Part shown: positions 1 to 24,056 of the stretch, piece by piece
Layout: every line of letters starts with the position of its first letter
Numbering within the stretch: the first letter of the stretch is position 1
Source of the DNA: a virus
Direction: 5' to 3' (one strand)
DNA: 26,370 nt
Virus genome (UHGV): UHGV-0117952
Program-made: the position numbers and the translations under genes
The notes under the pieces: generated by a model
Database searches by the model: none
The model's input: only the letters and a program-made list of their open reading frames with translations
What the model was told of the DNA's origin: nothing

Positions 1-41
1 ATTCGCAGGCCATCAAACTGCTGAAGATTGCAGCGGCGTAA
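1..41 (+). CDS. 3' end of an upstream gene (partial; probably last gene of the head module)
   Basis: Frame 3 is open from the window edge to TAA at 39-41 (...SQAIKLLKIAAA*). Frame 2 is alternatively open to TGA at 92-94, overlapping the next ATG as ATGA. The frame cannot be resolved from 40 nt. Confidence 0.25.
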   Translation, partial: SQAIKLLKIAAA

Positions 42-90
42 TCACTCAGGGGCGCGGAACCGCACCCCCTGTTCTGACGGGTGAAGAATC

Positions 91-291
91 ATGATCCTGA
101 AACAAGATCTGAAATGGTCACCGGACGGTATGCGTGTTGAGGTCATTCGGGCCGGTGAGTATGACGACGGGGCGCTTCCTGCCCGGGTGCAGGAGATTGC
201 ACTTCAGGCCGGGTTAGCAGAGCGCGGAATCAGTGCAAAAAGCAGTAAAGCGGCAAAAGAGAAAAAAGCCACGACCAGTAAAGAGGGCTGA
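91..291 (+). CDS. small hypothetical phage protein (66 aa) between head and head-tail joining genes
   Basis: ATG ORF, co-directional, stop 2 nt before the next start; Lys-rich C-terminal tail; no family recognised. Confidence 0.45.
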   Translation: MILKQDLKWSPDGMRVEVIRAGEYDDGALPARVQEIALQAGLAERGISAKSSKAAKEKKATTSKEG

Positions 292-293
292 GT

Positions 294-617
294 ATGCTTC
301 TGACAATGGAAGAGATTAAAGCCCAACTCCGGCTGGATGAGGATTTCGATGCTGATGACCGCCATCTGCAACTGCTGGCCTGTGCGGCGCAAAAGCGGAC
401 GGAAACGTATCTGAACCGGAAGCTCTATGCACCGGATGAAACCATTCCGGACAGCGATCCGGACGGGCTGCACCTGCCGGATGATATTCGTCTGGGGATG
501 CTGATGCTTATCAGCCATTTTTACGAAAACCGCTCGTCGGTTACGGAAGTGGAGAAACTCGACATGCCGCAGAGTTTTGGCTGGCTTGTCGGCCCGTACA
601 GGTACTTTCCGCAATGA
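294..617 (+). CDS. head-tail connector / DNA-packaging (gp6-like) protein
   Basis: 107 aa, acidic, position and size typical of gp6-like head-tail connector proteins; stop overlaps the next start (ATGA at 614-617). Confidence 0.65.
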   Translation: MLLTMEEIKAQLRLDEDFDADDRHLQLLACAAQKRTETYLNRKLYAPDETIPDSDPDGLHLPDDIRLGMLMLISHFYENRSSVTEVEKLDMPQSFGWLVGPYRYFPQ

Positions 618-1024
618 AAATTCGTCAGGCGCAGACCAGCGCAACCTACATTCTGCCGGACCCCGGTGAACTGAATAAACGCGTCCTGATCCGCCAGCGG
701 GTGGATATGCCCGCGGATAACTTTGGCGTGGAGCCTCAATACCCGGTTGCGTTCCGGACATGGGCGAAGGTTGTCCAGACCAGTGCCACCACCTGGCAGG
801 AAACCGCGCAGACCGGTGACGCCATCACCCATTACATCACCATTCGTTACCGCCGGGGGATCACCGCTGATTATGAGGTGGTCTGGGGTGACAGTGTGTA
901 CCGGGTGAAACGTCAGCGCGATCTGAACGGGGCGCGGCGCTTTCTGCTGCTGGAGTGTACGGAGCTGGGCGAATGTAGGCAGAGTCACGGAGGCAACAAT
1001 GACGACTTCCTTTTTGCACGTTGA
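614..1024 (+). CDS. head-tail adaptor / head closure protein
   Basis: 136 aa ORF translationally coupled to the connector; size and position fit head-closure (gp16-like) proteins; recalled similarity only. Confidence 0.6.
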   Translation: MKIRQAQTSATYILPDPGELNKRVLIRQRVDMPADNFGVEPQYPVAFRTWAKVVQTSATTWQETAQTGDAITHYITIRYRRGITADYEVVWGDSVYRVKRQRDLNGARRFLLLECTELGECRQSHGGNNDDFLFAR

Positions 1025-1505
1025 TTTTCAGCAGCCCGCGGAGATGCGCTTTAACCGCGCCCGTGTCCGGCGGGCGTTTGTCACGATTGGTCAGCGTCAT
1101 ATGCGTGATGCCCGTCGGCTGGTGATGCGCCGTGCGCGGTCGGCACCGGGTGAAAACCCCGGTTATCAGACCGGACGCCTGGCTCGTTCGATTGGTTACA
1201 TGGTACCCAGAGCCAGTAAACATCGCCCTGGTTTTATGGCACGTATAGCCCCTAACCAGCGTAATGGAGAGGGAAACCGCCGTATCACCGGTGATTTTTA
1301 TCCGGCTTTTTTGTTCTATGGCGTGAGGCGAGGTGCAAAGCGTCGTCGCAGCCATCATCGTGGTGCATCCGGTGGCAGCGGCTGGCGACTGGCTCCACGT
1401 AATAACTTCATGGTGGAAACGCTTGAAAAGAACCACAGCTGGACACGCTATTTTCTGGCGCGGGAATTGCGTAAATCACTGAAGCCGGAGCGACGACACA
1501 GATGA
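999..1505 (+). CDS. HK97 gp10-like tail-completion / neck protein
   Basis: 168 aa ORF with GGAGG Shine-Dalgarno at 985-989; Arg-rich; position between head closure and sheath genes. Confidence 0.55.
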   Translation: MTTSFLHVDFQQPAEMRFNRARVRRAFVTIGQRHMRDARRLVMRRARSAPGENPGYQTGRLARSIGYMVPRASKHRPGFMARIAPNQRNGEGNRRITGDFYPAFLFYGVRRGAKRRRSHHRGASGGSGWRLAPRNNFMVETLEKNHSWTRYFLARELRKSLKPERRHR

Positions 1506-2062
1506 AACTGACGCCTGTTATTGCTGCGCTGCGTGCCCGCTGCCCGTATTTTGAAAACCGGGTGGCAGGCGCGGCACAGTTCAAAAATCTGCCGGAGGTC
1601 GGAAAGCTGAGACTCCCGGCGGCGTATGTGGTACCGGGGGATGATTCTCCGGGAGAAAACAAAAGCCAGACCGACTACTGGCAGGAGCTGAAAGAGGGCT
1701 TCTCCGTGGTTGTCATACTGAGTAACGGGCGTGATGAGCGCGGTCAGTTTGCCTCGTATGATGTGGTGGACGATGTCCGGCAGATGCTCTTTAAGGCTCT
1801 GCTGGGCTGGAACCCGGAAGCGTGCGGTAACCCGATTACCTATGACGGCGGCACGCTGCTGGATCTGAATCGTCATGAGCTGATTTATCAGTTCGATTTT
1901 TCGGTCATCAGCGAGCTGACCGAAGACGATACCCGCCAGCAGGATGACCTGAACAGTCTGGATGAACTGCGAACGCTGGCGATTGATGTTGATTATCTCG
2001 AGCCCGGTAACGGGCCTGACGGCGATATCGAACATCACACCGAAATAACCCTTCCTTCCTGA
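1502..2062 (+). CDS. tail terminator / sheath-neck protein (family uncertain)
   Basis: 186 aa ORF, ATGA overlap with the upstream gene, immediately upstream of the sheath gene. Confidence 0.5.
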   Translation: MKLTPVIAALRARCPYFENRVAGAAQFKNLPEVGKLRLPAAYVVPGDDSPGENKSQTDYWQELKEGFSVVVILSNGRDERGQFASYDVVDDVRQMLFKALLGWNPEACGNPITYDGGTLLDLNRHELIYQFDFSVISELTEDDTRQQDDLNSLDELRTLAIDVDYLEPGNGPDGDIEHHTEITLPS

Positions 2063-2224
2063 GGATCCTCATGTTTGTCAAACCTGTTAAAGGGCGGTCA
2101 GTTCCTGACCCTGCCCGCGGCGACCTTTTGCCCGCTGAGGGGCGAAATGTTGACGAGAACAACTACTGGCTGCGCCGTGAAGCAGCGGGTGATATCCGGC
2201 GCGTGAATAAAAAGGTGAATACCG

Positions 2225-3721
2225 ATGACGATAAGATTTAACACCATTCCGTCGAATACGCTGGTTCCGATTTTTTATGCGGAAATGGATAACTCGGCGG
2301 CGAATACTGCACAGGACAGCGGAGCATCGCTGCTGATTGGTCATGCCAATAACGGTGCAGAGATTGTTGCCAACAGTCTGGTGCTGATGCCATCGGCAGA
2401 CTATGCACGCCAGATTTGTGGTGCGGGAAGTCAGCTGGCGCGTATGGTCGAGGCTTATCGCCAGACCGACCCGTTTGGTGAACTGTATGTGATTGCCGTT
2501 CCTGAATCCACGGGCGCGGCGGCAACAGTTACGCTGACGGTGACCGGCGCGGCAACCGAAACCGGCACGGTGAATGTTTATGTGGGACGTACCCGCGTGC
2601 AGGCACCAGTGACCAACGGCGATAACGTCGAGACGATTGCCAGCAGTATCAAAGATGCCATCAATGCCGTTCCGACCCTGCCGTTTACTGCCTCATCTTC
2701 GGCAGGCGTGGTCACACTGACCGCGCGTCATAAGGGGCTTTGCGGGAATGAAATTCCTGTCAGCCTCAATTACTACGGCTTTGGTGGGGGCGAAGTGCTG
2801 CCAGCGGGCGTACAGATTGCCGTGGCGACGGGTACCGCCGGAACGGGTGCTCCTGTTCTCACCGGCGCGGTGGCTGCAATGGCGGATGAGCCGTTTGATT
2901 ATATCGGCCTGCCGTTCAACGACACGGCCTCCGTTAACACGCTGGTGACCGAGATGAACGATACCAGCGGTCGCTGGAGCTATGCGCGTCAGCTGTATGG
3001 TCATGTGTATACGGCAAAGATCGGCACGCTGTCAGAACTGGTGACCGCAGGTGACCAGTTTAACCAGCAGCACATCACCCTGGCGGGATACGAAAAAGAG
3101 ACCCAGACGCCTGCCGACGAGCTGGCGGCAAGCCGTACCGCCCGCGCAGCGGTGTTTATTCGCAACGATCCGGCACGTCCCACGCAGACCGGTGAGCTGG
3201 TGGGTATGCTGCCTGCGCCGAAGGGGAAACGGTTCACGATGACCGAACAACAGACCCTGCTGTCTCATGGCGTGGCAACGGCGTATGTCGAAAGCGGGGT
3301 GCTGCGCATTCAGCGTGATGTCACCACGTACAGGAAAAACGCTTACGGTGTTGCGGATAACAGCTACCTCGACAGCGAGACGCTGCATACCAGCGCGTAT
3401 GTGCTGCGCAAACTGAAATCCGTCATTACCAGTAAGTACGGGCGTCACAAGCTTGCCAGCGACGGTACCCGCTTTGGTCCCGGTCAGGCGATTGTCACCC
3501 CGGCGGTGATCAAAGGGGAACTGCTGGCAACCTACCGTCAGCTTGAGCGTGCGGGGATCGTGGAAAACTACGAACTGTTTAAGCAGTACCTGGTTGTGGA
3601 GCGTGATGCCAGCGATCCGAACCGCCTGAACACGCTGTTCCCGCCTGACTATGTTAACCAGTTGCGTGTCTTTGCCGTGGTTAACCAGTTCCGTCTTCAG
3701 TATTCAGAGGAGTCTGCATAA
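2225..3721 (+). CDS. contractile tail sheath protein (Mu gpL-like)
   Basis: 498 aa; Gly/Thr/Ala-rich composition and length typical of Mu-type sheath proteins; followed directly by tube and chaperone genes. Confidence 0.85.
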   Translation: MTIRFNTIPSNTLVPIFYAEMDNSAANTAQDSGASLLIGHANNGAEIVANSLVLMPSADYARQICGAGSQLARMVEAYRQTDPFGELYVIAVPESTGAAATVTLTVTGAATETGTVNVYVGRTRVQAPVTNGDNVETIASSIKDAINAVPTLPFTASSSAGVVTLTARHKGLCGNEIPVSLNYYGFGGGEVLPAGVQIAVATGTAGTGAPVLTGAVAAMADEPFDYIGLPFNDTASVNTLVTEMNDTSGRWSYARQLYGHVYTAKIGTLSELVTAGDQFNQQHITLAGYEKETQTPADELAASRTARAAVFIRNDPARPTQTGELVGMLPAPKGKRFTMTEQQTLLSHGVATAYVESGVLRIQRDVTTYRKNAYGVADNSYLDSETLHTSAYVLRKLKSVITSKYGRHKLASDGTRFGPGQAIVTPAVIKGELLATYRQLERAGIVENYELFKQYLVVERDASDPNRLNTLFPPDYVNQLRVFAVVNQFRLQYSEESA

Positions 3722-4077
3722 TGGCCCGTATCGGGGGAACCTGTTATTTCAAAATTGACGGTCAACAGCTATCGCTGACCGGCGGCATTGAGGTGCCCAT
3801 GAACAGGACGGTCAATGATGACATCATCGGCCTGGACGGTTCAGTGGACCGCAAGGAAACTCACCGTGCGCCTTATGTCAAAGGGACTTTCAAGGTGCCG
3901 AAGAATTTTCCGGTGAACAAAATCACCTCGTCTGATGAGATGACTATCACTGCCGAGCTGGCGAACGGTCAGGTCTATGTACTGTCGTCTGCCTGGCTGC
4001 ACGGCGAAGCGAACCATAATGCCGAAGAAGGCACGGTTGATCTTGAGTTCCACGGTGAAGAAGGGGATTACCAGTAA
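3721..4077 (+). CDS. tail tube protein (Mu gpM-like)
   Basis: 118 aa ORF, TAATG overlap with the sheath gene; canonical sheath-tube pair. Confidence 0.8.
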   Translation: MARIGGTCYFKIDGQQLSLTGGIEVPMNRTVNDDIIGLDGSVDRKETHRAPYVKGTFKVPKNFPVNKITSSDEMTITAELANGQVYVLSSAWLHGEANHNAEEGTVDLEFHGEEGDYQ

Positions 4078-4346
4078 TGAAAGAGCTTGAGTTAAAGAAA
4101 CCGATTACTGCTCATGGCGAGACACTCTCCGTACTGGAGTTTGATGAGCCCACCGGGAAGGATGTCCGCGAGCTGGGGTATCCCTACCAGATGAATCAGG
4201 ATGAGTCAGTCAAACTTCTGGCGCATGTGGTGTCGAAATACATTGTGCGGCTGGCGAAAGTGCCGCAAAGCTCTGTCGACCAGATGTCTCCGGCAGACCT
4301 GAATGCAGCGGCGTGGCTTGTGGCTGGTTTTTTCCTCCAGGCCTGA
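4077..4346 (+). CDS. tail assembly chaperone (short, in-frame product)
   Basis: 89 aa ORF between tube and tape measure; overlapped at its 3' end by a -1 frame ORF (4313-4495) with slippery heptamer T_TTT_TTC at 4328-4334. Confidence 0.7.
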   Translation: MKELELKKPITAHGETLSVLEFDEPTGKDVRELGYPYQMNQDESVKLLAHVVSKYIVRLAKVPQSSVDQMSPADLNAAAWLVAGFFLQA

Positions 4347-4495
4347 CGGCTGAATACCTCACTGATCGCTTCTTTGACTGCGCCAGCTACTGGCGCATTA
4401 ATCCTTTCGAATTGCTGAATATGCCGATCAGTGAAATTCCCTTACTGGTCAGTCAGGCAAACAGGATAGAGCAGGAGAAACGCACACATGGCTGA
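4077..4495 (+). CDS. tail assembly chaperone, long product by programmed -1 ribosomal frameshift
   Basis: Zero-frame codons GGT TTT TTC at 4326-4334 contain X_XXY_YYZ = T_TTT_TTC. The -1 frame continues open to 4495, overlapping the tape-measure start at 4488. Classic G/GT arrangement. Confidence 0.55.
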
Positions 4496-6320
4496 ATTTG
4501 AGCTTAAGGCGTTGATCACCGGTGTCGACAGGCTTTCTCCCGCGCTGTCGAAAATGCAAAAGAAAATCCGGGGATTTAAACGCCAGGCGGAAGAAGCGTC
4601 ACAGGGTGGGCTGGCGCTTGGGGGCGGACTGGCAGCGGGTCTGACGCTTTCCCTGAAATCTTATGCCGATCAGGAAAACGCCGCCACCGGGCTGAAAGTC
4701 GCCATGATGGATGCGAACGGCGAGGTTGGAAAGAGCTTTCAGGACATCAATAAACTGGCTATTGGCCTGGGTAACCAGCTACCTGGTACAACGGCTGATT
4801 TCCAGAACATGATGCAGATGCTGGTGCGTCAGGGGATCCCGGCAGAAAACATTCTGGATGGTGTGGGTAAAGCGACAGCTTATCTTGCGGTACAACTGAA
4901 AAAAACACCGGAAGCGGCTGCTGAGTTTGCTGCAAAGATGCAGGATGCTACCGGAACGGCGTCAGAAGACATGATGGGGCTGTTCGACACTATCCAGAAG
5001 GCGTTTTATCTGGGCGTTGACGATACCAACATGTTGTCCTTCTTCACTAAAACCAGTTCTGTTCTGAAGATGGTGAACAAGGATGGTCTTCAGGCTGCAC
5101 AGAGCCTTGCCCCCATCAGCGTCATGATGGATCAGATGGGGATGAACGGGGAGTCGGCAGGTAATGCCCTGCGAAAAGTTATCCAGTCCGGATTAAGCGT
5201 TAAGAAAATCAGGGACGTTAATAAAGTCATGGCCCGCCAGAAACTCGGGGTACAGCTCGATTTTACTGACGGCAAAGGAAGTTTTGGCGGTCTTGATAAC
5301 ATGTTCAGGCAACTGGCAAAGCTGCGAAAACTGACCGACGTTAAGCGAACAGGTGTACTTAAGGCAATATTTGGTGATGATGCCGAAACCCTTCAGGTGG
5401 TCAATGCACTAATCGATAAAGGAAAGGATGGCTACGATCAGATCCAGCAGAAGATGAATAAACAGGCCAGCCTGAATAAACGTGTTCAGGCACAGCTTGG
5501 TACGCTGTCCAACCTGTGGGAGGCAATGACAGGGACCGCAACTAACGGCCTTGCGGCTATTGGCGGCGCATTTTCTGGTGACGCTAAAAATATCACACAA
5601 TGGCTGGGGGAGTTGGGGGAGAAATTCACGAAGTTTGCGGATGAAAATCCCCGGGTTATTCGCGGCGTCGTCGGGCTTGCTGCCGGTCTTGCGATTCTGA
5701 AACTGGGATTGATGGGCGTGGGCAGTGCCATCAGTATTGTCAGCAGGATTATGTCGATGACGCCGATTGGCATGATTGCGACGGCGATTGCTCTGGCTGC
5801 GGGATTAATTATCACTAACTGGGATGTTGTCGGACCTTATTTCAAGAAGCTCTGGGAAACCATTTGTCCTTATTTTGAGGCAGGTTGGGAACTTCTGAAG
5901 AAGGTTTTTGCCTGGTCGCCGCTGGGGATGGTGATCAATAACTGGGGACCGGTTGTTAAGTGGTTTCAGGATATGTGGGACAAGCTGAAGCCAATTATTG
6001 AGTGGTTTACCGACAGTTCCGGTGACACGGTCGATGCCATTAACTCTGCGCAGTGGGGCGCGGGTGCTTATGATGCTTATGGGACGGGAATACCGGCGCG
6101 GGGATACACACCTTATCCGGCGGTGGATCCGGCTCAGTCAAACAACGCCTCCGATGCCACAGGCTCGAATCCCTTCATGATTAACAAAGCTTCTGTGCCA
6201 AAAGTTGATGGTGAGATCAAGGTATCTTTTGTGAATTCGCCTCCGGGTATGCGGGTTATGGAAACGCGATCCAGCGGTTTTGATGTCAGCCATGATGTTG
6301 GCTATACGCGGTTCAGGTAG
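4488..6320 (+). CDS. tail tape measure protein (Mu-like module)
   Basis: 610 aa, Ala/Gly/Leu/Gln-rich helical composition with a hydrophobic GxxxG-like C-terminal segment; sits directly after the chaperone frameshift pair. Confidence 0.85.
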   Translation: MAEFELKALITGVDRLSPALSKMQKKIRGFKRQAEEASQGGLALGGGLAAGLTLSLKSYADQENAATGLKVAMMDANGEVGKSFQDINKLAIGLGNQLPGTTADFQNMMQMLVRQGIPAENILDGVGKATAYLAVQLKKTPEAAAEFAAKMQDATGTASEDMMGLFDTIQKAFYLGVDDTNMLSFFTKTSSVLKMVNKDGLQAAQSLAPISVMMDQMGMNGESAGNALRKVIQSGLSVKKIRDVNKVMARQKLGVQLDFTDGKGSFGGLDNMFRQLAKLRKLTDVKRTGVLKAIFGDDAETLQVVNALIDKGKDGYDQIQQKMNKQASLNKRVQAQLGTLSNLWEAMTGTATNGLAAIGGAFSGDAKNITQWLGELGEKFTKFADENPRVIRGVVGLAAGLAILKLGLMGVGSAISIVSRIMSMTPIGMIATAIALAAGLIITNWDVVGPYFKKLWETICPYFEAGWELLKKVFAWSPLGMVINNWGPVVKWFQDMWDKLKPIIEWFTDSSGDTVDAINSAQWGAGAYDAYGTGIPARGYTPYPAVDPAQSNNASDATGSNPFMINKASVPKVDGEIKVSFVNSPPGMRVMETRSSGFDVSHDVGYTRFR

Positions 6321-6419
6321 TGTACAAAATGATTAATGTGTTTTTGTCTGGCATAATTTGGGTTTTCAGCTTTAAGTAGTTAATATAATCATTCCTTACA
6401 AATGATTGAAGGGATGATT

Positions 6420-6914
6420 ATGCGTATCTTTGTTTTTTTTATATCTGCACTTTTATCTTTTAACTTGGCTGCGGAAGAGTGTAAGTTCAGCTTTAATGAG
6501 TCAGAATTAATCTCTTCTATAGGTATTGCACCAGTTAAGCAAGAGATAATAAAGGATGAAGGAATAACTAAGCGGCAATATGAATTCAGAAGAGAATTAT
6601 CTTCTGAAGAAATGCTTAGTGATGACGCTGATGAAAAATATGAGCCGCAGTTTTATATATCTGTTTATAATCCATCATGCCCACAAAAGGTTATTGTTTG
6701 GTTTTTCAAAGACAATAAAAACACAATGGATTTAAGTAATGAGGTCCTTGCTGGTAGAGCGTTCAAGTATTTAACTGGTGTTAATGAAAGTATTTTTGAA
6801 AATAAAATGAAAAAGTTTTTAAAGGTACAGTCATTTGAATCTTTTGATGAAAGGACAGATTCTAAATTTATAAAGAGTGGTGATATTTATTCCATTGATG
6901 TTCAACTCAGATAG
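6420..6914 (+). CDS. AT-rich moron: small secreted/periplasmic protein of unknown function (164 aa from ATG 6420)
   Basis: ORF track starts at 6402, but ATG 6420 has GAAGGG 6 nt upstream. N-terminus MRIFVFFISALLSFNLAA/EE is a Sec-type signal peptide. About 30-35% GC against about 57% in flanking tail genes. Own terminator downstream. Confidence 0.6.
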   Translation: MRIFVFFISALLSFNLAAEECKFSFNESELISSIGIAPVKQEIIKDEGITKRQYEFRRELSSEEMLSDDADEKYEPQFYISVYNPSCPQKVIVWFFKDNKNTMDLSNEVLAGRAFKYLTGVNESIFENKMKKFLKVQSFESFDERTDSKFIKSGDIYSIDVQLR

Positions 6915-6933
6915 TAATTAAAAATATTAGGTT

Positions 6934-6989
6934 CCCGCCACATCTTCTGCGATGTAAATAACTGACAAAGCAGATTTGGCGGGTTTTTT
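6934..6989 (+). terminator. rho-independent terminator after the moron
   Basis: CCCGCCA (6934-6940) pairs with TGGCGGG (6977-6983), imperfect extended stem, followed by TTTTTT (6984-6989). Confidence 0.5.
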
Positions 6990-7004
6990 GTATCCGGAGT
7001 TTAT

Positions 7005-8333
7005 ATGACGTGGAAAGACAGGCTTCAGGATGCGTCATTTCGCGGCGTACCGTTTAAGGTTGAAGAAGAAAGTGCGGGAACCGGTCGCCGTGTGGAAACA
7101 CACGAATATCCGAACCGCGACAAGCCCTATACCGAAGATCTGGGAAAAGTCACTTTCCGCCCGTCCATCACAGCTTATGTGGTGGGAGATGACTGCTTTG
7201 ACCAGCGCGATCGCCTGATTGACGCGCTGAATAAACCCGGTCCCGGCACGCTTGTCCACCCGACATACGGTGAGTTGAAAGTCTGTGTTGACGGGGAAGT
7301 TCGGGTCAGCACATCGAAGAGTGAAGGGCGTATTGTCCGCTTTGACCTGAAGTTTGTCGAAGCGGGAGATCTCTCTTACCCCACATCAGGCGTGGCGACG
7401 GCGCAGACGCTGATGTCATCCTGTTCTGCACTGGATGACTGCATCAGTGACAGCTTCAGCGGTTTCAGTATCGATGGCGTGGCAGATTTTGTGCAGAACG
7501 ACGTCGTCGGTAATGTCGGCACAATGCTTGGGTATGTTTCTGATGCGATGAAAGTGGTGGATTCTGCCGTATCGGATGCCGCCAGGCTGTTGCAGGGGGA
7601 TATCTCGGTACTTCTTCCGCCGCCATCGTCAGGCAAAAATTTCGTTGAGCAGGTGCAGAAAATGTGGCGTACCGGGAAACGCCTTTATGGTAACGCCAGC
7701 GACCTGGTCACCATGATCAAAACGCTTTCCGGTGTCAGCCTCGGCAGCGATCTGCAACCGCGCGGCGTCTGGAAAACGGACAGTAAAACCACCGCCACGG
7801 CGACGCAGCAGCGTAACGTGGTTGCCAGCACCCTTCGTACGACCGCAATCAGCGAAGCGGCGTATGCCGTCACCCGATTGCCTGCGCCAACAACTTCCGC
7901 GGTGATGCAGAATTCCGCAGTGGGGCAGGCAACAACACCCGCGCAGAGCACTGGCTGGCCTTCCGTCACGCATCCGGCACTGAACAATGCACCGGCGGTG
8001 AAAAACACGGTTGACCTGCCGACGTGGGAAGAACTGACTGACATTCGCGACACACTGAATACGGCAATTGATAAGGAGTTGTCCCGTACAACCAGTGATG
8101 CGCTGTTTCTGGTGCTGCGCCGGGTGAAAGCAGATCTGAATGCGGATATCAACACGCGCCTTGAACAGTCTGCACGGATCATTCAGCGCACGCCGGATGA
8201 GGTTTTACCCGCGCTGGTGCTGGCGGCGACCTGGTTTGATAACGCGGCGCGTGACGCGGACATTATCCGGCGTAATGCCATTACGCATCCCGGCTTTGTG
8301 CCGGTGATCCCTCTGAAGGTGCCAGTGCAATGA
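7005..8333 (+). CDS. Mu gpN-like DNA circularization / tail protein
   Basis: 442 aa ORF with GGAG Shine-Dalgarno; N-terminal region and position (tape measure, then N, then baseplate hub) as in Mu-type tails. Confidence 0.75.
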   Translation: MTWKDRLQDASFRGVPFKVEEESAGTGRRVETHEYPNRDKPYTEDLGKVTFRPSITAYVVGDDCFDQRDRLIDALNKPGPGTLVHPTYGELKVCVDGEVRVSTSKSEGRIVRFDLKFVEAGDLSYPTSGVATAQTLMSSCSALDDCISDSFSGFSIDGVADFVQNDVVGNVGTMLGYVSDAMKVVDSAVSDAARLLQGDISVLLPPPSSGKNFVEQVQKMWRTGKRLYGNASDLVTMIKTLSGVSLGSDLQPRGVWKTDSKTTATATQQRNVVASTLRTTAISEAAYAVTRLPAPTTSAVMQNSAVGQATTPAQSTGWPSVTHPALNNAPAVKNTVDLPTWEELTDIRDTLNTAIDKELSRTTSDALFLVLRRVKADLNADINTRLEQSARIIQRTPDEVLPALVLAATWFDNAARDADIIRRNAITHPGFVPVIPLKVPVQ

Positions 8334-12002: not shown

Positions 12003-12005
12003 TCC

Positions 12006-14867: not shown

Positions 14868-15010
14868 ACAAGCCTTAATGAGTATCTGCTTAAAATAGTG
14901 TTATCTACAGATCAAACTTTAGTTGATACGAGTCACTGTCCTCCCCGTAACAACTGGAGTTAAAAGATGTGATGGCATATAAATATAACATCAAATAATT
15001 ATTTTTTTTT

Positions 15011-15040: not shown

Positions 15041-15079
15041 GTCAGATACAAAGTTAGGAGTATCTGTAGTTAAGTGTTT

Positions 15080-16169: not shown

Positions 16170-16198
<29 letters not shown>
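15080..16198 (-). CDS. family-2 (GT-A fold) glycosyltransferase body; probable phase-variable gene
   Basis: 372 aa in this frame, with GT2 hallmarks VSVVIPVHNRE, FIDDCSTD, FFLDSDDS. About 30% GC. Frame has only a GTG start at 16198 with no usable Shine-Dalgarno and is open upstream through the repeat tract to a stop at 16265-16267. Confidence 0.8.
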
Positions 16199-16409
<211 letters not shown>

Positions 16410-16523
16410 TATGCAACCTCTAACGTTAATAATGTTTATGAATATTCAGAATGCTATCTCATAACATGAAGCATTATATCTGAACATTGTGACATGATTT
16501 AATGAAGTCATCAGCACATCATG

Positions 16524-16539
16524 CTGCAATGCATTGCAG
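16524..16539. promoter_or_regulatory. perfect 16-bp palindrome CTGCAATGCATTGCAG upstream of the glycosyltransferase locus (candidate operator)
   Basis: Read directly; lies about 115-130 bp upstream of the leader ATG (16409), and about 50 bp upstream of a TATAAT-like element on the minus strand (plus-strand 16474-16479). Confidence 0.35.
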
Positions 16540-16685
16540 TATAACTAACACGAGGGATTGTTTGCATGGTGATAGTTTTGTTGGTGATAAAATCAGCATA
16601 ATTAAATATGTTGGCGTACATTTTGAACATTTTTAAGCAAAGCAAATTATAAGTATAAAAATAGTTAATGTGAAGTTGTACTCAT

Positions 16686-16717
16686 GTAAAAAGCCCCGCA
16701 TTCTCTCGAAGGCGGGG
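16686..16717 (-). terminator. rho-independent terminator, minus-strand orientation
   Basis: Minus-strand RNA: CCCCGC, 12-nt loop, GCGGGG, then CUUUUU (plus-strand stem arms 16694-16699 / 16712-16717, A-run 16688-16692). Confidence 0.5.
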
Positions 16718-16810
16718 AAGATTTGAAAATTAATGGTACAAATTGACGATTTCATATTCTATTCTGTATTAGAATAAAAGTGAATATAATTATTTATTTT
16801 AGGTGATTTT

Positions 16811-16838
16811 TTAAAAAAAGCCCGTGGAAGCAACGGGC
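16811..16838 (-). terminator. rho-independent terminator, minus-strand orientation
   Basis: Minus-strand RNA: GCCCGU, 7-nt loop, ACGGGC, followed by U7 (plus-strand stem 16820-16825 / 16833-16838, A7 at 16813-16819). Confidence 0.55.
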
Positions 16839-17452
16839 ATAAAACGCGGAATTGATTAAGATCTGTATAATTTAATTTTCTGATTCTATCATGCATATCA
16901 TTCACAGTGAAGTTGGTAATTTAGTAAAACTAGTGATAATGCCACTCGGTTTGATAACAAGAGAAACCACAGCGTGGTTTCGTCGAACAGTTTATGAAGG
17001 ATATTCCCCCCAAATATACACTCGCTTTGTGCTGTAGCAGCGCAGATGCTGGTTGCTATTCTTACCGGGAACTGGGCTTACAAGGCAATAGTAGTGTGAC
17101 ATTCTTCATCGCGCACGTGCATATCCTGGCTGAAAATCGATGGATAGAAAATATCCGCAAAGGGAAGCGGAGCAGCATACCGTGGTGGGGGGCACATGTA
17201 TGGGGTGTTGGAAGTCTGATGGATTTCTTTGTACCAGACAGCTTGTATTTTCATCTTTTCTTTGTTTCTTTGCAGGTAATTATGAGTAGCAACAAATCCT
17301 GAATGGCTGGGTATACCGCAATAAATAGAGGCGGGCAAGTTGCCCACTTTTTCTTTATCTGTTGTTTCATCCACTGCCCAGCCAGGTCAAATAGCGTCTC
17401 ATGCTTCGCACAACAGAAAATAGTTGCACCCATTAACCACGGAGTTAAACGG

Positions 17453-18643
17453 ATGAGTGACTATCATCACGGCGTGCAGGTGCTGGAGATTAACGACGGC
17501 ACCCGCGTCATTTCCACCGTATCCACCGCCATTGTTGGCATGGTCTGCACGGCCAGCGATGCGGATGCGGAAACCTTCCCCCTCAATAAACCGGTGCTGA
17601 TCACCAATGTGCAGAGCGCGATTGCAAAGGCCGGTAAAAAAGGCACGCTGGCGGCATCGTTGCAGGCCATCGCTGACCAGTCAAAACCGGTCACCGTTGT
17701 CGTGCGCGTGGAAGACGGCACCGGCGACGACGAAGAAACGAAACTCGCGCAGACCGTTTCCAATATCATCGGCACCACTGACGAAAACGGTCAGTACACC
17801 GGACTGAAAGCCCTGCTGGCGGCGGAGTCGGTAACCGGTGTTAAACCGCGTATTCTCGGTGTGCCGGGACTGGATACCAAAGAGGTGGCTGTTGCACTGG
17901 CATCCGTCTGTCAGAAGCTGCGCGCTTTCGGGTATATCAGCGCATGGGGCTGTAAAACCATTTCCGAGGTGAAAGCCTACCGCCAGAATTTCAGCCAGCG
18001 TGAGCTGATGGTCATCTGGCCGGATTTCCTCGCATGGGATACGGTCACCAGTACCACCGCCACCGCGTATGCCACCGCCCGTGCGCTGGGTCTGCGCGCT
18101 AAAATCGACCAGGAGCAGGGCTGGCATAAAACGCTGTCCAACGTCGGGGTAAACGGTGTTACCGGCATCAGCGCCTCTGTATTCTGGGATTTGCAGGAGT
18201 CCGGCACCGATGCTGACCTGCTTAACGAGTCAGGCGTCACTACGCTGATTCGCCGCGACGGTTTCCGCTTCTGGGGTAACCGTACCTGCTCTGATGACCC
18301 ACTGTTTCTCTTTGAAAACTACACCCGCACCGCGCAGGTGCTGGCCGACACGATGGCTGAGGCGCACATGTGGGCGGTGGACAAGCCCATCACCGCAACG
18401 CTGATTCGCGATATCGTTGACGGCATCAATGCCAAATTCCGTGAGCTGAAAACAAACGGCTATATCGTGGATGGCTCATGCTGGTTCAGCGAAGAATCCA
18501 ACGATGCGGAAACCCTCAAGGCCGGAAAACTGTATATCGACTACGACTATACACCGGTGCCTCCTCTCGAAAACCTGACCCTGCGCCAGCGTATTACCGA
18601 TAAATACCTGGCAAATCTGGTCACCTCGGTTAACAGCAATTAA
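17453..18643 (+). CDS. FI: P2-type tail sheath protein FI
   Basis: Track ORF starts at 17303, but ATG 17453 (MSDYHHGVQVLEIND...) has GGAG at 17441-17444 and matches the recalled P2 FI N-terminus; 396 aa. Confidence 0.9.
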   Translation: MSDYHHGVQVLEINDGTRVISTVSTAIVGMVCTASDADAETFPLNKPVLITNVQSAIAKAGKKGTLAASLQAIADQSKPVTVVVRVEDGTGDDEETKLAQTVSNIIGTTDENGQYTGLKALLAAESVTGVKPRILGVPGLDTKEVAVALASVCQKLRAFGYISAWGCKTISEVKAYRQNFSQRELMVIWPDFLAWDTVTSTTATAYATARALGLRAKIDQEQGWHKTLSNVGVNGVTGISASVFWDLQESGTDADLLNESGVTTLIRRDGFRFWGNRTCSDDPLFLFENYTRTAQVLADTMAEAHMWAVDKPITATLIRDIVDGINAKFRELKTNGYIVDGSCWFSEESNDAETLKAGKLYIDYDYTPVPPLENLTLRQRITDKYLANLVTSVNSN

Positions 18644-18655
18644 GGAGCCTGACCG

Positions 18656-19174
18656 ATGGCAATGCCGCGCAAACTCAAGTTAATGAACGTCTTTCTGAAC
18701 GGCTACAGCTATCAGGGCGTCGCGAAGTCCGTCACGCTGCCAAAACTGACCCGTAAGCTCGAAAACTATCGCGGTGCGGGGATGAACGGCAGCGCACCGG
18801 TAGACCTCGGCCTTGATGACGATGCGCTGTCAATGGAGTGGTCGCTCGGTGGCTTCCCGGATTCGGTTATCTGGGAGCTTTACGCCGCAACCGGCGTGGA
18901 TGCCGTGCCGATTCGTTTTGCAGGCTCTTACCAGCGCGACGATACCGGCGAAACGGTGGCCGTCGAAGTGGTCATGCGTGGCCGTCAGAAAGAAATCGAC
19001 ACCGGTGAGGGTAAGCAGGGAGAAGACACCGAGTCGAAAATCTCCGTGGTCTGCACCTATTTCCGGCTGACGATGGACGGTAAGGAGCTGGTCGAAATTG
19101 ACACCATCAACATGATTGAGAAGGTGAACGGCGTCGACCGGCTGGAGCAACACCGCCGCAATATCGGCCTGTGA
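18656..19174 (+). CDS. FII: P2-type tail tube protein FII
   Basis: 172 aa, AGGAG Shine-Dalgarno 8 nt upstream; N-terminus MAMPRKLKLMNVFLNGYSYQG recognised as P2 FII-like. Confidence 0.9.
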   Translation: MAMPRKLKLMNVFLNGYSYQGVAKSVTLPKLTRKLENYRGAGMNGSAPVDLGLDDDALSMEWSLGGFPDSVIWELYAATGVDAVPIRFAGSYQRDDTGETVAVEVVMRGRQKEIDTGEGKQGEDTESKISVVCTYFRLTMDGKELVEIDTINMIEKVNGVDRLEQHRRNIGL

Positions 19175-19231
19175 TTTTCATCCGGTCAGCCAGGCTGACC
19201 GGTTAACCCCCGATTCAGAAGTGAGAAAACC

Positions 19232-19507
19232 ATGAACAAAGAAAATGTGATTACCCTGGACAATCCGGTCAAGCGTGGTGAGCAGGTCATCGAACAGGTC
19301 ACGCTGATGAAACCCAATGCCGGGACGCTGCGCGGTGTCAGTCTGGCTGCGGTCGCAAACTCCGAAGTCGATGCACTGATTAAAGTGCTGCCGCGCATGA
19401 CGGCACCGATGCTGACCGAGCAGGAAGTCGCCGCGCTGGAACTGCCTGACCTTGTGGCGCTGGCCGGTAAGGTGGTCGGTTTTTTGTCGCCGAACTCGGT
19501 GCAGTGA
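19232..19507 (+). CDS. E: P2-type tail assembly chaperone gpE
   Basis: 91 aa ORF between FII and T; contains slippery T_TTT_TTG at 19480-19486 near its 3' end. Confidence 0.85.
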   Translation: MNKENVITLDNPVKRGEQVIEQVTLMKPNAGTLRGVSLAAVANSEVDALIKVLPRMTAPMLTEQEVAALELPDLVALAGKVVGFLSPNSVQ

Positions 19508-19659
19508 CGTTTCCGAAAAATCTGTCGGTCGATGACCTGATGGCGGATGTGGCAGTGATATTTCACTGGCCGCCATCAGAACTGTATCCCATGAGTCTGA
19601 CCGAACTCATCACATGGCGCGAAAAGGCGCTCCGGCGAAGCGGAAACACGAATGAGTAA
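19232..19659 (+). CDS. E': gpE+E' extended chaperone by programmed -1 frameshift
   Basis: After a -1 slip at TTTTTTG the frame stays open to TAA at 19657-19659 (...FHWPPSELYPMSLTELITWREKALRRSGNTNE*), overlapping the T start at 19652. Confidence 0.7.
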
Positions 19660-22099
19660 CAATGTAAAATTACAGGTATTGCTCAGGGCTGTTGACCAGG
19701 CATCCCGCCCGTTTAAATCCATCCGCACAGCGAGCAAGTCGCTGTCGGGGGATATCCGGGAAACACAAAAATCACTGCGCGAGCTGAACGGTCAGGCGTC
19801 CCGTATTGAGGGATTTCGCAAGACCAGTGCGCAGCTCGCCGTGACTGGTCAGGAACTGAAAAAAGCCAGACAGGAAGCCGCAGCTCTGGCTGTCCAGTTT
19901 ACAAATACTGAACGACCGACAAATGCACAGGCAAAGGCAATGGAAGCCGCGCGTAAAAACGCGTCTGAGTTACAGGCGAAATATAACAGCCTGAGATTGT
20001 CGGTACAGCGCCAGCGTCAGGAATTGAGTCAGGCGGGTATTAATACCCGTAATCTGGCGCATGATGAACGAGGGCTGAAAAATCGTATCAGCGAAACCAC
20101 CACACAGCTTAACCGTCAGCGTGATGCGCTGGCGCGTGTCAGTGCGCAACAGGCAAAACTTAATGCAGTAAAACAGCGTTATCAGGTCGGAAAGGAACTG
20201 GCCGGAAATATGGCCTCGGTGGGCGCTGCCGGTGTGGGTATTGCGGCGGCGGGAACGATGGCCGGAGTTAAGCTGCTGATGCCCGGTTATGAGTTTGCGC
20301 AGAAAAACTCAGAATTACAGGCCGTGCTCGGTGTGGAAAAAGACTCTGCCGAAATGGCCGCGCTACGCAAGCAGGCGCGCCAGCTCGGCGACAATACCGC
20401 CGCCTCGGCAGATGATGCAGCCGGTGCACAGATTATCATCGCGAAAGCGGGTGGGGATGTTGATGCCATTCAGGCGGCAACGCCGGTCACGCTGAACATG
20501 GCGCTGGCGAACCGCCGCACGATGGAAGAAAACGCCGCCCTGCTGATGGGGATGAAATCCGCCTTTCAGCTTTCAAACGATAAGGTCGCTCATATCGGGG
20601 ATGTTCTCTCCATGACGATGAACAAAACCGCCGCCGATTTTGATGGCATGAGCGATGCGCTGACCTATGCCGCACCTGTGTCAAAAAATGCTGGTGTCAG
20701 CATTGAAGAAACCGCCGCAATGGTCGGGGCGCTGCATGATGCAAAAATTACCGGTTCAATGGCGGGGACGGGAAGCCGTGCCGTGTTAAGCCGCCTGCAG
20801 GCACCGACGGGAAAAGCATGGGATGCACTGAAAGAGCTTGGCGTGAAAACCTCAGACAGTAAGGGAAACACCCGGCCAGTATTTACCATTCTGAAAGAAA
20901 TGCAGGCCAGCTTTGAGAAAAACCGGCTCGGTACTGCCCAGCAGGCTGAATACATGAAAACTATTTTCGGGGAGGAGGCCAGCTCAGCCGCCGCCGTGCT
21001 GATGACTGCCGCCTCAACCGGAAAGCTGGACAAACTGACCGCTGCGTTTAAAGCCTCAGACGGGAAGACCGCCGAGCTGGTAAATATCATGCAGGACAAC
21101 CTAGGCGGTGACTTTAAAGAGTTTCAGTCCGCTTATGAGGCGGTGGGGACTGACCTGTTTGACCAGCAGGAAGGCGCACTGCGTAAGCTCACGCAGACGG
21201 CCACAAAGTATGTGTTAAAACTCGACGGCTGGATCCAGAAAAACAAATCACTGGCGTCAACCATCGGACTTATTGTCGGTGGTGCACTGGCACTGATTGG
21301 TGTCATCGGTGCCATTGGCCTCGTAGCCTGGCCGGTTATCACCGGCATCAATGCCATCATCGCGGCAGCAGGCGCAATGGGGGCAATCTTCACGACGGTT
21401 GGCAGTGCTGTTATGACCGCCATCGGAGCGATTAGCTGGCCGGTTGGGGCCGTGGTGGCCGCCATTGTCGCCGGGGCGTTGCTTATCCGTAAATACTGGG
21501 AGCCTGTCAGCGCATTCTTTGGCGGTGTGGTGGAAGGGCTGAAAGCGGCATTTGCGCCGGTGGGGGAACTGTTCACGCCACTTAAGCCGGTGTTTGACTG
21601 GTTGGGCGAAAAGTTACAGGCCGCGTGGCAGTGGTTTAAAAACCTGATTGCCCCGGTTAAAGCCACCCAGGACACCCTGAACCGTTGCCGTGACACGGGC
21701 GTCATGTTCGGGCAGGCACTGGCTGACGCGTTGATGCTGCCGCTTAATGCGTTCAACAAACTGCGCAGTGGTATTGACTGGGTACTGGAAAAACTCGGTG
21801 TTATCAACAAAGAGTCAGACACACTTGACCAGACCGCCGCCAGAACTCATGCCGCCACGTATGGCACCGGTGGTTATATTCCGGCGACCAGCTCTTATGC
21901 AGGCTATCAGGCTTATCAGCCGGTTACGGCACCGGCTGGCCGCTCTTATGTGGACCAGAGTAAAAACGAATATCACATCAGTCTGACGGGCGGTACTGCG
22001 CCGGGGACTCAGCTCGACCGCCAGTTACAGGATGCGCTCGAAAAATATGAGCGGGATAAACGTGCGCGCGCCCGTGCCAGCATGATGCATGACGGTTAA
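19652..22099 (+). CDS. T: P2-type tail tape measure protein gpT
   Basis: 815 aa, coiled-coil-rich N-terminal half and hydrophobic glycine-zipper segment; follows E/E'. Confidence 0.9.
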   Translation: MSNNVKLQVLLRAVDQASRPFKSIRTASKSLSGDIRETQKSLRELNGQASRIEGFRKTSAQLAVTGQELKKARQEAAALAVQFTNTERPTNAQAKAMEAARKNASELQAKYNSLRLSVQRQRQELSQAGINTRNLAHDERGLKNRISETTTQLNRQRDALARVSAQQAKLNAVKQRYQVGKELAGNMASVGAAGVGIAAAGTMAGVKLLMPGYEFAQKNSELQAVLGVEKDSAEMAALRKQARQLGDNTAASADDAAGAQIIIAKAGGDVDAIQAATPVTLNMALANRRTMEENAALLMGMKSAFQLSNDKVAHIGDVLSMTMNKTAADFDGMSDALTYAAPVSKNAGVSIEETAAMVGALHDAKITGSMAGTGSRAVLSRLQAPTGKAWDALKELGVKTSDSKGNTRPVFTILKEMQASFEKNRLGTAQQAEYMKTIFGEEASSAAAVLMTAASTGKLDKLTAAFKASDGKTAELVNIMQDNLGGDFKEFQSAYEAVGTDLFDQQEGALRKLTQTATKYVLKLDGWIQKNKSLASTIGLIVGGALALIGVIGAIGLVAWPVITGINAIIAAAGAMGAIFTTVGSAVMTAIGAISWPVGAVVAAIVAGALLIRKYWEPVSAFFGGVVEGLKAAFAPVGELFTPLKPVFDWLGEKLQAAWQWFKNLIAPVKATQDTLNRCRDTGVMFGQALADALMLPLNAFNKLRSGIDWVLEKLGVINKESDTLDQTAARTHAATYGTGGYIPATSSYAGYQAYQPVTAPAGRSYVDQSKNEYHISLTGGTAPGTQLDRQLQDALEKYERDKRARARASMMHDG

Positions 22100-22113
22100 G
22101 GAGGTGACGAAAA

Positions 22114-22593
22114 ATGATGCTCGCGTTAGGTATGTTTGTTTTTATGCGCCAGACGCTGCCACACCAGACCATGCAGCGTGAATCAGATTATCGCTGGCCG
22201 TCAAATTCCCGTATCGGTAAACGGGATGCCTACCAGTTTCTCGGCGTTGGTGAGGAAAACATGACGCTTGCCGGTGTGCTTTATCCCGAACTGACCGGCG
22301 GCAAGCTGACGATGACCACGCTCAGACTGATGGCAGAGGAAGGCCGGGCGTGGCCGTTGCTGGATGGCACAGGCATGATTTACGGCATGTATGTCATCAG
22401 CAGGGTGAGTGAAACAGGGAGTATTTTCTTTGCAGACGGCACACCCCGGAAAATTGATTTTACGCTGTCACTCACCCGCGTGGATGAATCACTGGCCGCG
22501 CTTTATGGCGATATCGGTAAACAGGCAGAATCGCTCATCGGTAAGGCTGGCAGTATGGCGACTAAATTCACGGGGATGACGGGGGCGGAATAA
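22114..22593 (+). CDS. U: P2-type tail protein gpU
   Basis: 159 aa; position after T and conserved-looking core (PHQTMQRESDYRWPSNSRIGKRDAYQFLG). Confidence 0.85.
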   Translation: MMLALGMFVFMRQTLPHQTMQRESDYRWPSNSRIGKRDAYQFLGVGEENMTLAGVLYPELTGGKLTMTTLRLMAEEGRAWPLLDGTGMIYGMYVISRVSETGSIFFADGTPRKIDFTLSLTRVDESLAALYGDIGKQAESLIGKAGSMATKFTGMTGAE

Positions 22594-23756
22594 TGCTGGA
22601 TGCGCTGACATTTGATGCAGGCAGTACGCTGACGCCGGATTACATGCTGATGCTCGACAGCAGGGATATTACCGGCAATATCAGCGACCGTCTGATGAGT
22701 ATGACCCTGACGGATAACCGGGGCTTTGAGGCTGACCAGCTTGATATTGAACTGAACGATGCCGACGGGCAGGTCGGGCTGCCGGTTCGTGGCGCTGTCC
22801 TGACGGTGTATATCGGCTGGAAAGGTTTTGCCCTGGTATGCAAAGGGAAATTCACCGTTGATGAGGTTGAACACCGGGGCGCACCGGATGTGGTCACCAT
22901 CCGCGCCCGGAGTGCAGATTTTCGCGGGACGCTCAATTCCCGCCGTGAAGGCTCATGGCATGACACCACGCTCGGTGCGATTGTTGAGGCGATAGCCTCC
23001 CGTAACAGGCTGGAAGCCAGTGTCGCGCCGTCACTGGCAGGAATTAAAATCCCGCACATCGACCAGTCGCAGGAGTCTGATGCGAAATTCCTGACCCGTC
23101 TTGCTGAACGCAACGGCGGTGAGGTGTCGGTAAAAATGGGAAAACTGCTGTTTCTCAAAGCGGGGCAGGGGGGGACGGCCAGCGGTAAAAAAATCCCGCA
23201 GATTACCATCACCCGCAGCGACGGCGACCGTCATCATTTTGCGATTGCTGACCGCGGAGCCTATACAGGCGTAACGGCAAAGTGGTTACACACCAAAGAC
23301 CCGAAACCGCAAAAGCAGAAGGTAAAACTGAAACGCAAAAAGAAAGAGAAACACCTGCGCGCACTGGAGCACCCGAACGCGAAACCGGTCAGGCAGAAGA
23401 AAGCGCCTAAAGTACCGGAAGCGCGTGAAGGTGAATACATGGCCGGTGAGGCTGACAACGTTTTTGCCCTGACCACGGTATATGCCACGAAAGCGCAGGC
23501 CATGCGCGCCGCTCAGGCGAAGTGGGATAAGCTGCAACGGGGCGTTGCGGAGTTCTCCATCAGTCTGGCTACCGGTCGTGCTGATATTTACACGGAAACA
23601 CCGGTTAAAGTGTCAGGCTTTAAGCGCGTCATAGACGAGCAGGACTGGACAATCACTAAGGTGACACATTTTCTGAATAATAGCGGCTTCACGACGTCCT
23701 TGGAGCTTGAGGTCAGGCTTTCTGATGTGGAGTACGAAACAGAAGATGATGAGTGA
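22593..23756 (+). CDS. D: P2-type late control / tail protein gpD
   Basis: 387 aa, start overlaps the U stop; N-terminus MLDALTFDAGSTLTPDYMLMLDSRDITG recognised as gpD family. Confidence 0.9.
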   Translation: MLDALTFDAGSTLTPDYMLMLDSRDITGNISDRLMSMTLTDNRGFEADQLDIELNDADGQVGLPVRGAVLTVYIGWKGFALVCKGKFTVDEVEHRGAPDVVTIRARSADFRGTLNSRREGSWHDTTLGAIVEAIASRNRLEASVAPSLAGIKIPHIDQSQESDAKFLTRLAERNGGEVSVKMGKLLFLKAGQGGTASGKKIPQITITRSDGDRHHFAIADRGAYTGVTAKWLHTKDPKPQKQKVKLKRKKKEKHLRALEHPNAKPVRQKKAPKVPEAREGEYMAGEADNVFALTTVYATKAQAMRAAQAKWDKLQRGVAEFSISLATGRADIYTETPVKVSGFKRVIDEQDWTITKVTHFLNNSGFTTSLELEVRLSDVEYETEDDE

Positions 23757-23837
23757 TGTTTTTATTTTATCTGTTTGTTTTATAAGGATAAATTAACTAA
23801 AATGGCACCATCAACAAAACCGGAAGAGGTGCTCGCG

Positions 23838-24056
23838 ATGTTTCATTGTCCTTTATGCCAGCATGCCGCACATGCGCGTACAAGCCGCTATATCACTGAC
23901 ACGACAAAAGAGCGTTATCACCAGTGTCAGAACGTGAATTGCAGCGCCACGTTCATCACTTATGAGTCGGTACAGCGATACATCGTGAAGCCGGGAGAAG
24001 TCCACGCCGTAAGACCGCACCCGTTGCCGTCAGGGCAGCAAATTATGTGGATGTAA
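23838..24056 (+). CDS. ogr: Ogr/Delta-family zinc-finger late-gene transcription activator
   Basis: Track ORF starts at 23775, but ATG 23838 (MFHCPLCQHAAHARTSRYI...CQNVNC) has GGAAGAGG 8 nt upstream and gives the 72-aa Cys4 protein typical of P2 Ogr. Confidence 0.85.
   Translation: MFHCPLCQHAAHARTSRYITDTTKERYHQCQNVNCSATFITYESVQRYIVKPGEVHAVRPHPLPSGQQIMWM

Follow-up and report, generated by a model that had tools for sequence, protein, structure and literature searches.

An SfV-like and a P2-like prophage half joined inside a shared tail-fibre cassette on an Escherichia coli metagenome contig

The virus genome UHGV-0117952 (26,370 nucleotides, hereafter the window) carries two complete and unrelated contractile-tail sets, each of which comprises a sheath, a tube, a frameshifted tail assembly chaperone and a tape measure. 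Our comparisons place its left and right parts as the right-hand halves of two ordinary temperate Escherichia coli prophages of the myovirus type, one SfV-like and the other P2-like, and locate the switch between them inside one tail-fibre gene, within a cassette that both prophage types share. As read from the sequence, the junction bears the footprint of a homologous exchange and not that of a site-specific integration, and the arrangement was found on this contig only among the collections searched. We infer that the switch arose in a cell rather than in the assembler, with the chances evenly balanced that the join is a true product of homologous recombination.

The window is the entire contig NODE_900_length_26370_cov_10.42 of ERZ1756037 (ENA), from a metaSPAdes-style assembly of short metagenomic reads, with a k-mer coverage of 10.4. 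Genes were called from an open reading frame (ORF) map combined with PHROG, Pfam and Rfam searches, and the comparison sets were 5,426 complete E. coli genomes, IMG/VR, 50,697 phage records and, for exact-protein look-up, 153 billion gene positions; loci used for comparison carry L numbers. A preliminary description of this DNA had listed two sheaths, two tubes, two frameshifted chaperones and two tape measures, and had assigned them to two different contractile-tail elements, one in Mu order and the other a terminal P2 late block. All these genes were recovered by PHROG and Pfam where that description had put them (Table 1), the genes of both tail sets are all intact ORFs, and the assignment to two elements stands. 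Duplication or paralogy of the two modules was rejected because the sheaths share no significant similarity (BLASTP E 1.5), the tape measures show marginal similarity only (E 0.001) and there are no DNA repeats between the modules. Each module is a member of a well-known family.

On the left, positions 1-12301/12307 share 97-98% nucleotide identity and the same order with SfI, SfII, SfV, SfIV, SKA5 and vB_EcoM-689R6, and the SfV-like prophage at dusA of the genome EC02 aligns with 98.8% identity, ungapped, over positions 1-14804. The genes run from connector to terminator, sheath, tube, frameshifted chaperone, tape measure, baseplate genes like Mu gp43-48 and fibre, as in SfV-like phages, with Pfam matches to PF06890, PF07409, PF04865 and PF10076 and with the Mu gp45-48 families present. 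Only the last 41 nt of the capsid gene are on the contig, and the window lacks the dinI, int and dusA/prfC with which SfV-like prophages usually end on the right. Compared with SfV, SfI, SfII, SfIV and SKA5, which combine an HK97-type head with a Mu-type contractile tail, the window is alike from the head-tail connector to the first ~100 fibre codons. It differs in that its distal fibre is a 2.6-kb S74-type cassette, whereas nearly all relatives have a short, usually invertible fibre with Caudo_TAP and a Gin-type invertase, and in that the normal right end (dinI, int and an attR at dusA, prfC or thrW) is replaced by P2 DNA.

On the right, positions 17329/17340-24184 share 95.7-96.7% nucleotide identity with P2, P22H1, fiAA91-ss and pro147. 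Homology to P2 resumes at 17340 (P2 17535), 20 bp before the Ogr-activator site annotated in the pF promoter, and stops at 24184, exactly at the annotated P2 attP core; FI-FII-E/E+E'-T-U-D and then ogr lie in between, with a -1 slip site in E. Downstream of ogr, the P2 attachment (att) core is present as an exact match of 27 of 27 nt (0 expected by chance) and overlaps the 3' end of cyaR. Since the core is exact and P2 homology ends there, the P2 part represents a prophage right end at the customary chromosomal site, beside the cyaR/yegQ pair already named in the preliminary description. No tRNA genes that could be integration targets were found within the window. The P2 genes V, W, J and I, the H-type anchor (PF12571) and the head genes are absent upstream of the cargo slot; all P2-like comparators reaching that far upstream have them, and their absence here is real only if the contig is correct. 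The P2/Peduovirus prophages at cyaR-yegQ (E. coli B/REL606, Z0117EC0062, DETEC-P881) resemble the window in pF-to-att identity, cargo slot and att core, but the window has the SfV-like module in place of V-W-J-I and the PF12571 anchor; compared with P2, its cargo is a GT2 glycosyltransferase instead of fun(Z).

The two halves meet in a single intact gene for a mosaic tail fibre of 953 amino acids (aa), composed of an SfV-family baseplate anchor, a linker, the shared receptor-binding cassette and a last stretch of 21 codons of P2-prophage type (Table 1). The cassette is common, at 99% identity or more, to the SfV-like and the dacD-site myovirus-type prophages of EC02 and to P2-like prophages, and the fibres of such P2-like prophages match codons 171-953 of the window fibre, the last 21 included, with an identity of at least 99%. 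The preliminary description had seen no P2 fibre in the window; this is right for the P2-type anchor, as Pfam matched PF13884 only and not PF12571, and wrong for codons 171-953. When compared with the EC02 fibre (951 aa), the window fibre differs essentially only in its last 21 residues, after the S74 match, and the EC02-type 3' end reads …ALTESISALTRRVDLLEE, followed by orf95. Judging from the S74 family, the C-terminal region past this domain is probably cleaved after folding, which would leave the mature hybrid fibre unchanged with respect to EC02. Note that the NCBI annotation pipeline PGAP gives the EC02 fibre as a pseudogene plus a shorter coding sequence; a split gene was rejected, since translation yields one intact 951-aa ORF.

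The position of the switch was determined by single-nucleotide polymorphism (SNP) typing against L001, L002, L004, L005, L019-L039 and L108-L117. With respect to the common P2-type allele (>20 loci), the window has the EC02-type base at 19-21 sites in 12518-13301, and no discriminating site lies between 13301 and 14638. At 14638 and 14678, the window departs from EC02 and agrees with L030, a contig from IMG/VR that has the P2 baseplate genes upstream and the 3' end of P2 type, and from 14805 onward the window is P2-type. That these two SNPs are private to the window was rejected because L030 shows them to be alleles of a P2-linked cassette lineage; 12988T is the sole base private to the window. 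L030 is itself mosaic and changes from P2-type to EC02-type alleles after 12617, and the crossover interval is therefore given in Table 1 with respect to both P2 alleles.

The preliminary description had placed the junction further right, in 14868-17452, which our results do not bear out. Indeed, the intact P2-like prophages at yegQ (Z0117EC0062, DETEC-P881, E. coli B) align to positions 12516-25796, with 99.7% identity over 12516-25781 for DETEC-P881, and V-W-J-I plus a P2-type fibre anchor stand directly upstream of the aligned region. Positions 12516-17452 form one colinear block after V-W-J-I in dozens of intact P2-like prophages (L002, L005, L019-L027, L108-L117), and the cargo is thus P2 cargo and not junction debris. 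Moreover, the gene order is P2 I - fibre - glycosyltransferase - FI in 23 other contigs that share the 79-aa cargo ORF, wherever they are long enough, and likewise in the contigs retrieved through the glycosyltransferase protein. Among the complete E. coli genomes, the best coverage of the window in a single place is 59%, and the two best match classes overlap. The att sites or direct repeats that were expected to bracket 14868-17452 do not occur in the window, apart from a (CCAG)n tract; the junction lies inside 2.3 kb of shared sequence without bracketing repeats, and none are to be expected at a junction with the footprint of homologous exchange.

The cassette itself is clearly mobile among prophage types, judging from its occurrence behind three baseplate anchors (SfV type, P2 type and a third tail-collar type), from its two identical copies in different prophages of EC02 and from the allele mosaic in L030. 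It was found in 87 complete E. coli genomes, only two of which hold two copies; in the one examined, EC02, the copies are on the SfV-like and the dacD-site prophages and not on a P2-like one. The exact 953-aa protein occurs on this contig only among all gene positions searched. In the members examined of its 90% cluster, the SfV anchor pairs with a 'B' C-end and the P2 anchor (PF12571) with the 'D' C-end of the window, and no IMG/VR locus has the SfV anchor with the cassette, the matches there spanning residues 1-101 or 152/160-953 only. The EC02 loci L001 (21006-24151, SfV-like at dusA) and L004 (19443-22636, a myovirus-type prophage with a DUF3383 sheath at dacD) also share, besides the identical cassette, the same downstream 95-aa ORF (same WP accessions), which suggests a recent exchange between co-resident prophages.

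To explain the window, we propose that an SfV-like element of the EC02 type and a P2-like prophage, with the cassette in common, underwent RecA- or phage-mediated homologous recombination. Through the crossover, the SfV-type anchor would have come to precede a cassette whose 3' end is of P2 type, with a single hybrid fibre gene that stays intact, and the whole SfV-like tail module would have come to lie immediately ahead of the P2 cargo slot and F operon. The F operon would keep its promoter and ogr but be cut off from its own V, W, J, I, H anchor and head genes, and alone it could presumably not build a tail. As for the topology, two elements in tandem may have undergone a deletion, an SfV-like genome may have entered the P2 fibre gene by Campbell-type homologous insertion, or two prophages in inverted orientation may have recombined and inverted the chromosome between them; depending on the topology, the reciprocal product (P2 baseplate, P2 anchor, cassette, orf95 and SfV integrase) would be elsewhere or deleted. 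Several observations favour a real join. The contig stops 52 nt into IS1 on its right, as a conservative assembler should, it passes the cassette without Ns, and the hybrid fibre ORF is intact. In isolate assemblies where part of the fibre 3' region is present twice (L112, L114-L116), the contigs break within this gene, and exchange of this kind occurs naturally, as the three anchors and the L030 mosaic indicate.

However, the contiguity rests on one short-read metagenome contig with a k-mer coverage of 10.4, and we give somewhat less than an even chance to an assembly chimera. This explanation supposes two normal prophages, both with the cassette and in one or two strains: an SfV-like one, whose fibre gene is followed by orf95, dinI and int in the manner of EC02, and a complete P2-like one at yegQ. 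In assembly, metaSPAdes would have entered the cassette from the SfV side and left it on the P2 side; there would then be neither a composite element nor a P2 remnant. The switch lies within 1.3-2.0 kb that are identical in both parental types, which exceeds any short-read insert and cannot be spanned by read pairs, and each half alone is an ordinary, widespread element. The join was seen nowhere else searched: the arrangement is absent from the complete E. coli genomes and from IMG/VR, and also from the 23 other contigs with the same cargo, all of which have the P2 baseplate upstream when long enough. A Logan contig 100% identical to positions 3616-7161 (run ERR1620285, probably the same sample) is only 3.5 kb long and hints at a branched, multi-variant graph, and the contigs L030 and L033, from two other metagenome assemblies, end close to where the cassette stops on the right, the former 50 bp beyond that point and the latter 25 bp before it. 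In a search for the other exits of the cassette, the EC02 orf95 gave 562 diverse small proteins as homologues and no exact match, and exact look-ups of the 370-aa glycosyltransferase (57 blocks), the gp47-like protein (532 blocks) and the gp44-like protein (4,458 blocks) led only to long contigs from isolates; no mention of the sample accessions turned up in the literature searched. A collapsed 55-bp tandem repeat in the same contig, described below, indicates that the assembler does pass through unresolved structures. In contrast, SPAdes normally halts at unresolvable repeats, as at IS1 here and inside the fibre gene of isolate assemblies, and its run-through suggests that other ways out of the cassette did not exist or had far lower coverage. 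In addition, the parental pair that a chimera needs must be uncommon, since it was not seen together: neither cassette copy of EC02, the two-copy genome examined, is on a P2-like prophage. The geography of the elements speaks against recombination in the cell, as all SfV-like sites that were placed are far from yegQ, at dusA, beside prfC and at a third site near autotransporter/xanthine-dehydrogenase-family genes, which we take to be the thrW/CP4-6 region, a known SfV site; a simple deletion between neighbouring prophages would thus be without precedent. With the SfV-like element at dusA, the fibre genes would be inverted, and recombination would be predicted to invert ~2.1 Mb including oriC, strongly unbalancing the replichores.

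The remaining explanations fare much worse. That a second prophage integrated, site-specifically or illegitimately, just upstream of FI was suggested by the AT-rich stretch of low coding density and opposite strand in a slot known to be variable in P2, but it is very improbable given the colinearity of 12516-17452 in intact P2-like prophages including E. coli B, the SfV-type homology that continues to 14804 and the lack of att-like direct repeats in the window besides the (CCAG)n tract. Even further from credible is a single functional hybrid phage using both tail sets. Although both consist entirely of intact ORFs, the P2 block ends at an attR joined to cyaR/yegQ, and the window is thus prophage-plus-chromosome DNA and not a packaged genome; the P2 set without V, W, J, I and H anchor would, from P2 biology, not build a tail alone, and none of the phage records covers both sets.

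The stretch between the fibre gene and the F operon occupies the fun(Z) slot of P2 on the same strand, as the P2 annotation confirms for the cargo noted in the preliminary description. Its glycosyltransferase contains a perfect (CCAG)n tetranucleotide tract and is split in the window, through the length of this tract, into a 79-aa N-terminal ORF (16170-16409) and a GT2 ORF of 370/372 aa (15080-16192/16198), whereas it is a single ORF of 453-540 aa in ATCC 11303, B-DolR and DETEC-P881. Simulated tract lengths give one ORF when n mod 3 = 0 and two ORFs for any other n. As an example, five E. coli B-lineage genomes, sub-lines of a single laboratory strain, have 7, 21, 34, 35 and 45 units with 0 differences in 1 kb on each side, some of which unit counts could include long-read assembly error. 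Of these tracts, those of 21 and 45 units alone leave the gene as a single ORF, in agreement with the PGAP annotation. In other strains, ~8 to ~66 units were inferred, and DETEC-P881 has an impure tract of 345 bp. The (CCAG)n glycosyltransferase looks like a candidate phase-variable lysogenic-conversion gene, with a putative repeat-driven ON/OFF switch.

The length of the tract in the window needs caution. It is exactly 55 bp (13.75 units) here and likewise in all the draft assemblies to which the 79-aa ORF led (L019-L028), and a stable allele of 13 units was rejected because all drafts have 55 bp while closed genomes vary widely. It is probably a repeat collapse at an assembler k of 55, a value taken from the tract length, and not the true length; the split into 79 and 370 aa may therefore be an artefact and is uninformative on the true phase state. 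We found no description of this (CCAG)n repeat in the open-access literature searched. In E. coli, repeat-driven phase switches are generally regarded as rare. Note that the ~0.9 kb between the glycosyltransferase and pF (16410-17339) is AT-rich, with weak ORFs only (16994-17302 on the plus strand, phrog_1443, and 17078-17374 on the minus strand), and is conserved in P2-like prophages with this cargo.

Table 1. Features of the window, with positions, strand and basis of assignment or remark.
Feature	Position	Strand	Basis or remark
SfV-like late module (HK97-type head, Mu-type tail)	1-12005	+	nucleotide identity to SfV group, PHROG/Pfam
Capsid gene 3' end	1-41	+	
66-aa ORF	91-291	+	
Head-tail adaptor	294-617	+	
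Head closure	614-1024	+	
Neck	999-1505	+	
Tail terminator	1502-2062	+	
DUF2635	2071-2241	+	
Sheath, 498 aa	2225-3721	+	phrog_165, E 2e-231
Tube	3721-4077	+	
Tail assembly chaperone	4077-4346, -1 frame (ORF 4313-4495) to 4495	+	PF10109, phrog_166 for both products
Slippery heptamer TTTTTTC, Mu-type chaperone	4328-4334	+	in frame with 4077-4346
Tape measure, 610 aa	4488-6320	+	
Low-GC putative moron	6402-6914	+	phrog_8976
Mu gp43-like	7005-8333	+	
Mu gp44-like	8330-9409	+	
Mu gp45-like	9409-9957	+	
Mu gp46-like	9957-10382	+	
Mu gp47-like	10369-11427	+	
Mu gp48-like	11418-12002	+	
Tail-fibre gene, single, intact, mosaic, 953 aa	12006-14867	+	
SfV-family baseplate anchor (codons 1 to ~100)	12006-12307	+	common to all SfV-like phages
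Fibre linker	12308-12515	+	elsewhere seen only in the two EC02 prophages
Shared receptor-binding fibre cassette, 2.3 kb	12516-14804	+	boundaries from ungapped identity profiles
Crossover interval	13302-14637; versus L030-type P2 allele 12618-14637	+	SNP typing
Peptidase_S74 intramolecular chaperone	aa 781-843 of fibre	+	PF13884
Last 21 fibre codons, P2-prophage type	14805-14867	+	
P2 variable cargo slot, AT-rich (35-40% GC)	14868-17339	.	position of fun(Z) in P2
Cargo GT2 glycosyltransferase	15080-16409	-	PF00535 E 3e-28; PHROG GtrB-like
(CCAG)n tract	16201-16255	-	perfect tetranucleotide repeat, 55 bp, between start codon (16409) and GT2 domain
P2 F operon and ogr	17340-24056	+	nucleotide identity to P2 relatives, PHROG/Pfam, P2 annotation
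pF promoter region	17340-17452	+	
FI (sheath)	17453-18643	+	
FII	18656-19174	+	
E, with E+E' to 19659	19232-19507	+	slip site in E
Slippery heptamer TTTTTTG in E	19480-19486	+	in frame; -1 shift into overlapping E'
T (tape measure), 815 aa	19652-22099	+	
U	22114-22593	+	
D	22593-23756	+	
ogr	23838-24056	+	
P2 att core (attR of P2-like prophage)	24158-24184	+	exact 27/27 match, 0 expected by chance
CyaR (RyeE) small RNA gene	24161-24246	-	Rfam RF00112, 100.7 bits versus gathering score 47
yegQ	24329-25690	-	
Chromosomal flank	24329-26370	-	
ParD-like antitoxin fragment	25832-25990	-	
Hypothetical ORF	26011-26280	-	
First 52 nt of IS1, where contig ends	26319-26370		

Among the other features, a -1 shift at the TTTTTTC heptamer of the Mu-type chaperone is predicted to read through into the 4313-4495 frame. 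The ORF at 6402-6914 (~39% GC, 164-170 aa), between the tape measure and the Mu gp43-like gene, had no Pfam, NCBIfam or PADLOC match and is present in some SfV-like prophages (EC02, L009, L014) and absent in others (L012, L013); it appears to behave as a moron. Most SfV-like prophages (L040-L106 from IMG/VR, L009-L018 and L123-L131) have a short invertible fibre end with Collar/Gp53-like tips, paired Caudo_TAP chaperones and a Gin-type resolvase, and many viral contigs end ~303 nt into the SfV-like fibre gene, presumably where the invertible segment breaks assemblies. Beyond yegQ, at 25797-26370, the usual yegQ-yegP arrangement is lost, and the ParD-like fragment, the hypothetical ORF and the start of IS1 are found instead; this arrangement occurs at 100% identity in 75 complete genomes, of which SCEC020023, the one examined, lacks a P2 prophage at yegQ.

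That unrelated phages exchange segments of their tail fibres horizontally is established and has reportedly been described by Haggard-Ljungquist, Halling and Calendar in 1992 (P2 H gene) and by Sandmeier in 1994. The window is alike in that one cassette stands behind three anchors with shuffled alleles, and it differs in that the shared cassette also joins two whole prophage modules and not just a swapped tip. Homologous recombination between prophages yields chimeric prophages or inversions, for example in the prophage pool of E. coli O157:H7 and in Streptococcus pyogenes. If the junction is real, the mechanism would be the same, with kilobase-scale identity between co-resident prophages as substrate, but the known cases mostly concern related lambdoid prophages, whereas the partners in the window are unrelated and share the fibre cassette only. 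The window is therefore at most a new instance, in which a shared cassette joins two families, and at worst an artefact.

As it stands, the finding is mostly cautionary, as the picture of two tails comes from a join in a shared cassette for which a short-read metagenome assembly cannot vouch, and the candidate phase-variable cargo gene, also present in E. coli B, may be a more useful lead than the two-tail join. It is conceivable, and in our estimate only a little short of an even prospect, that the S74-type cassette acts as a portable homology patch joining unrelated families, the outcome being either a composite prophage that is locked in, with a single hybrid fibre and both tail sets, or a megabase-scale inversion. 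If the join is true, homologous recombination would operate between unrelated prophage families via a shared receptor-binding cassette, and fibre cassettes would, beyond host-range swapping, drive inter-family prophage fusion and chromosome rearrangement. The window would then offer a defined case of the origin, in gut E. coli, of defective composite prophages or of rearrangements that prophages mediate.

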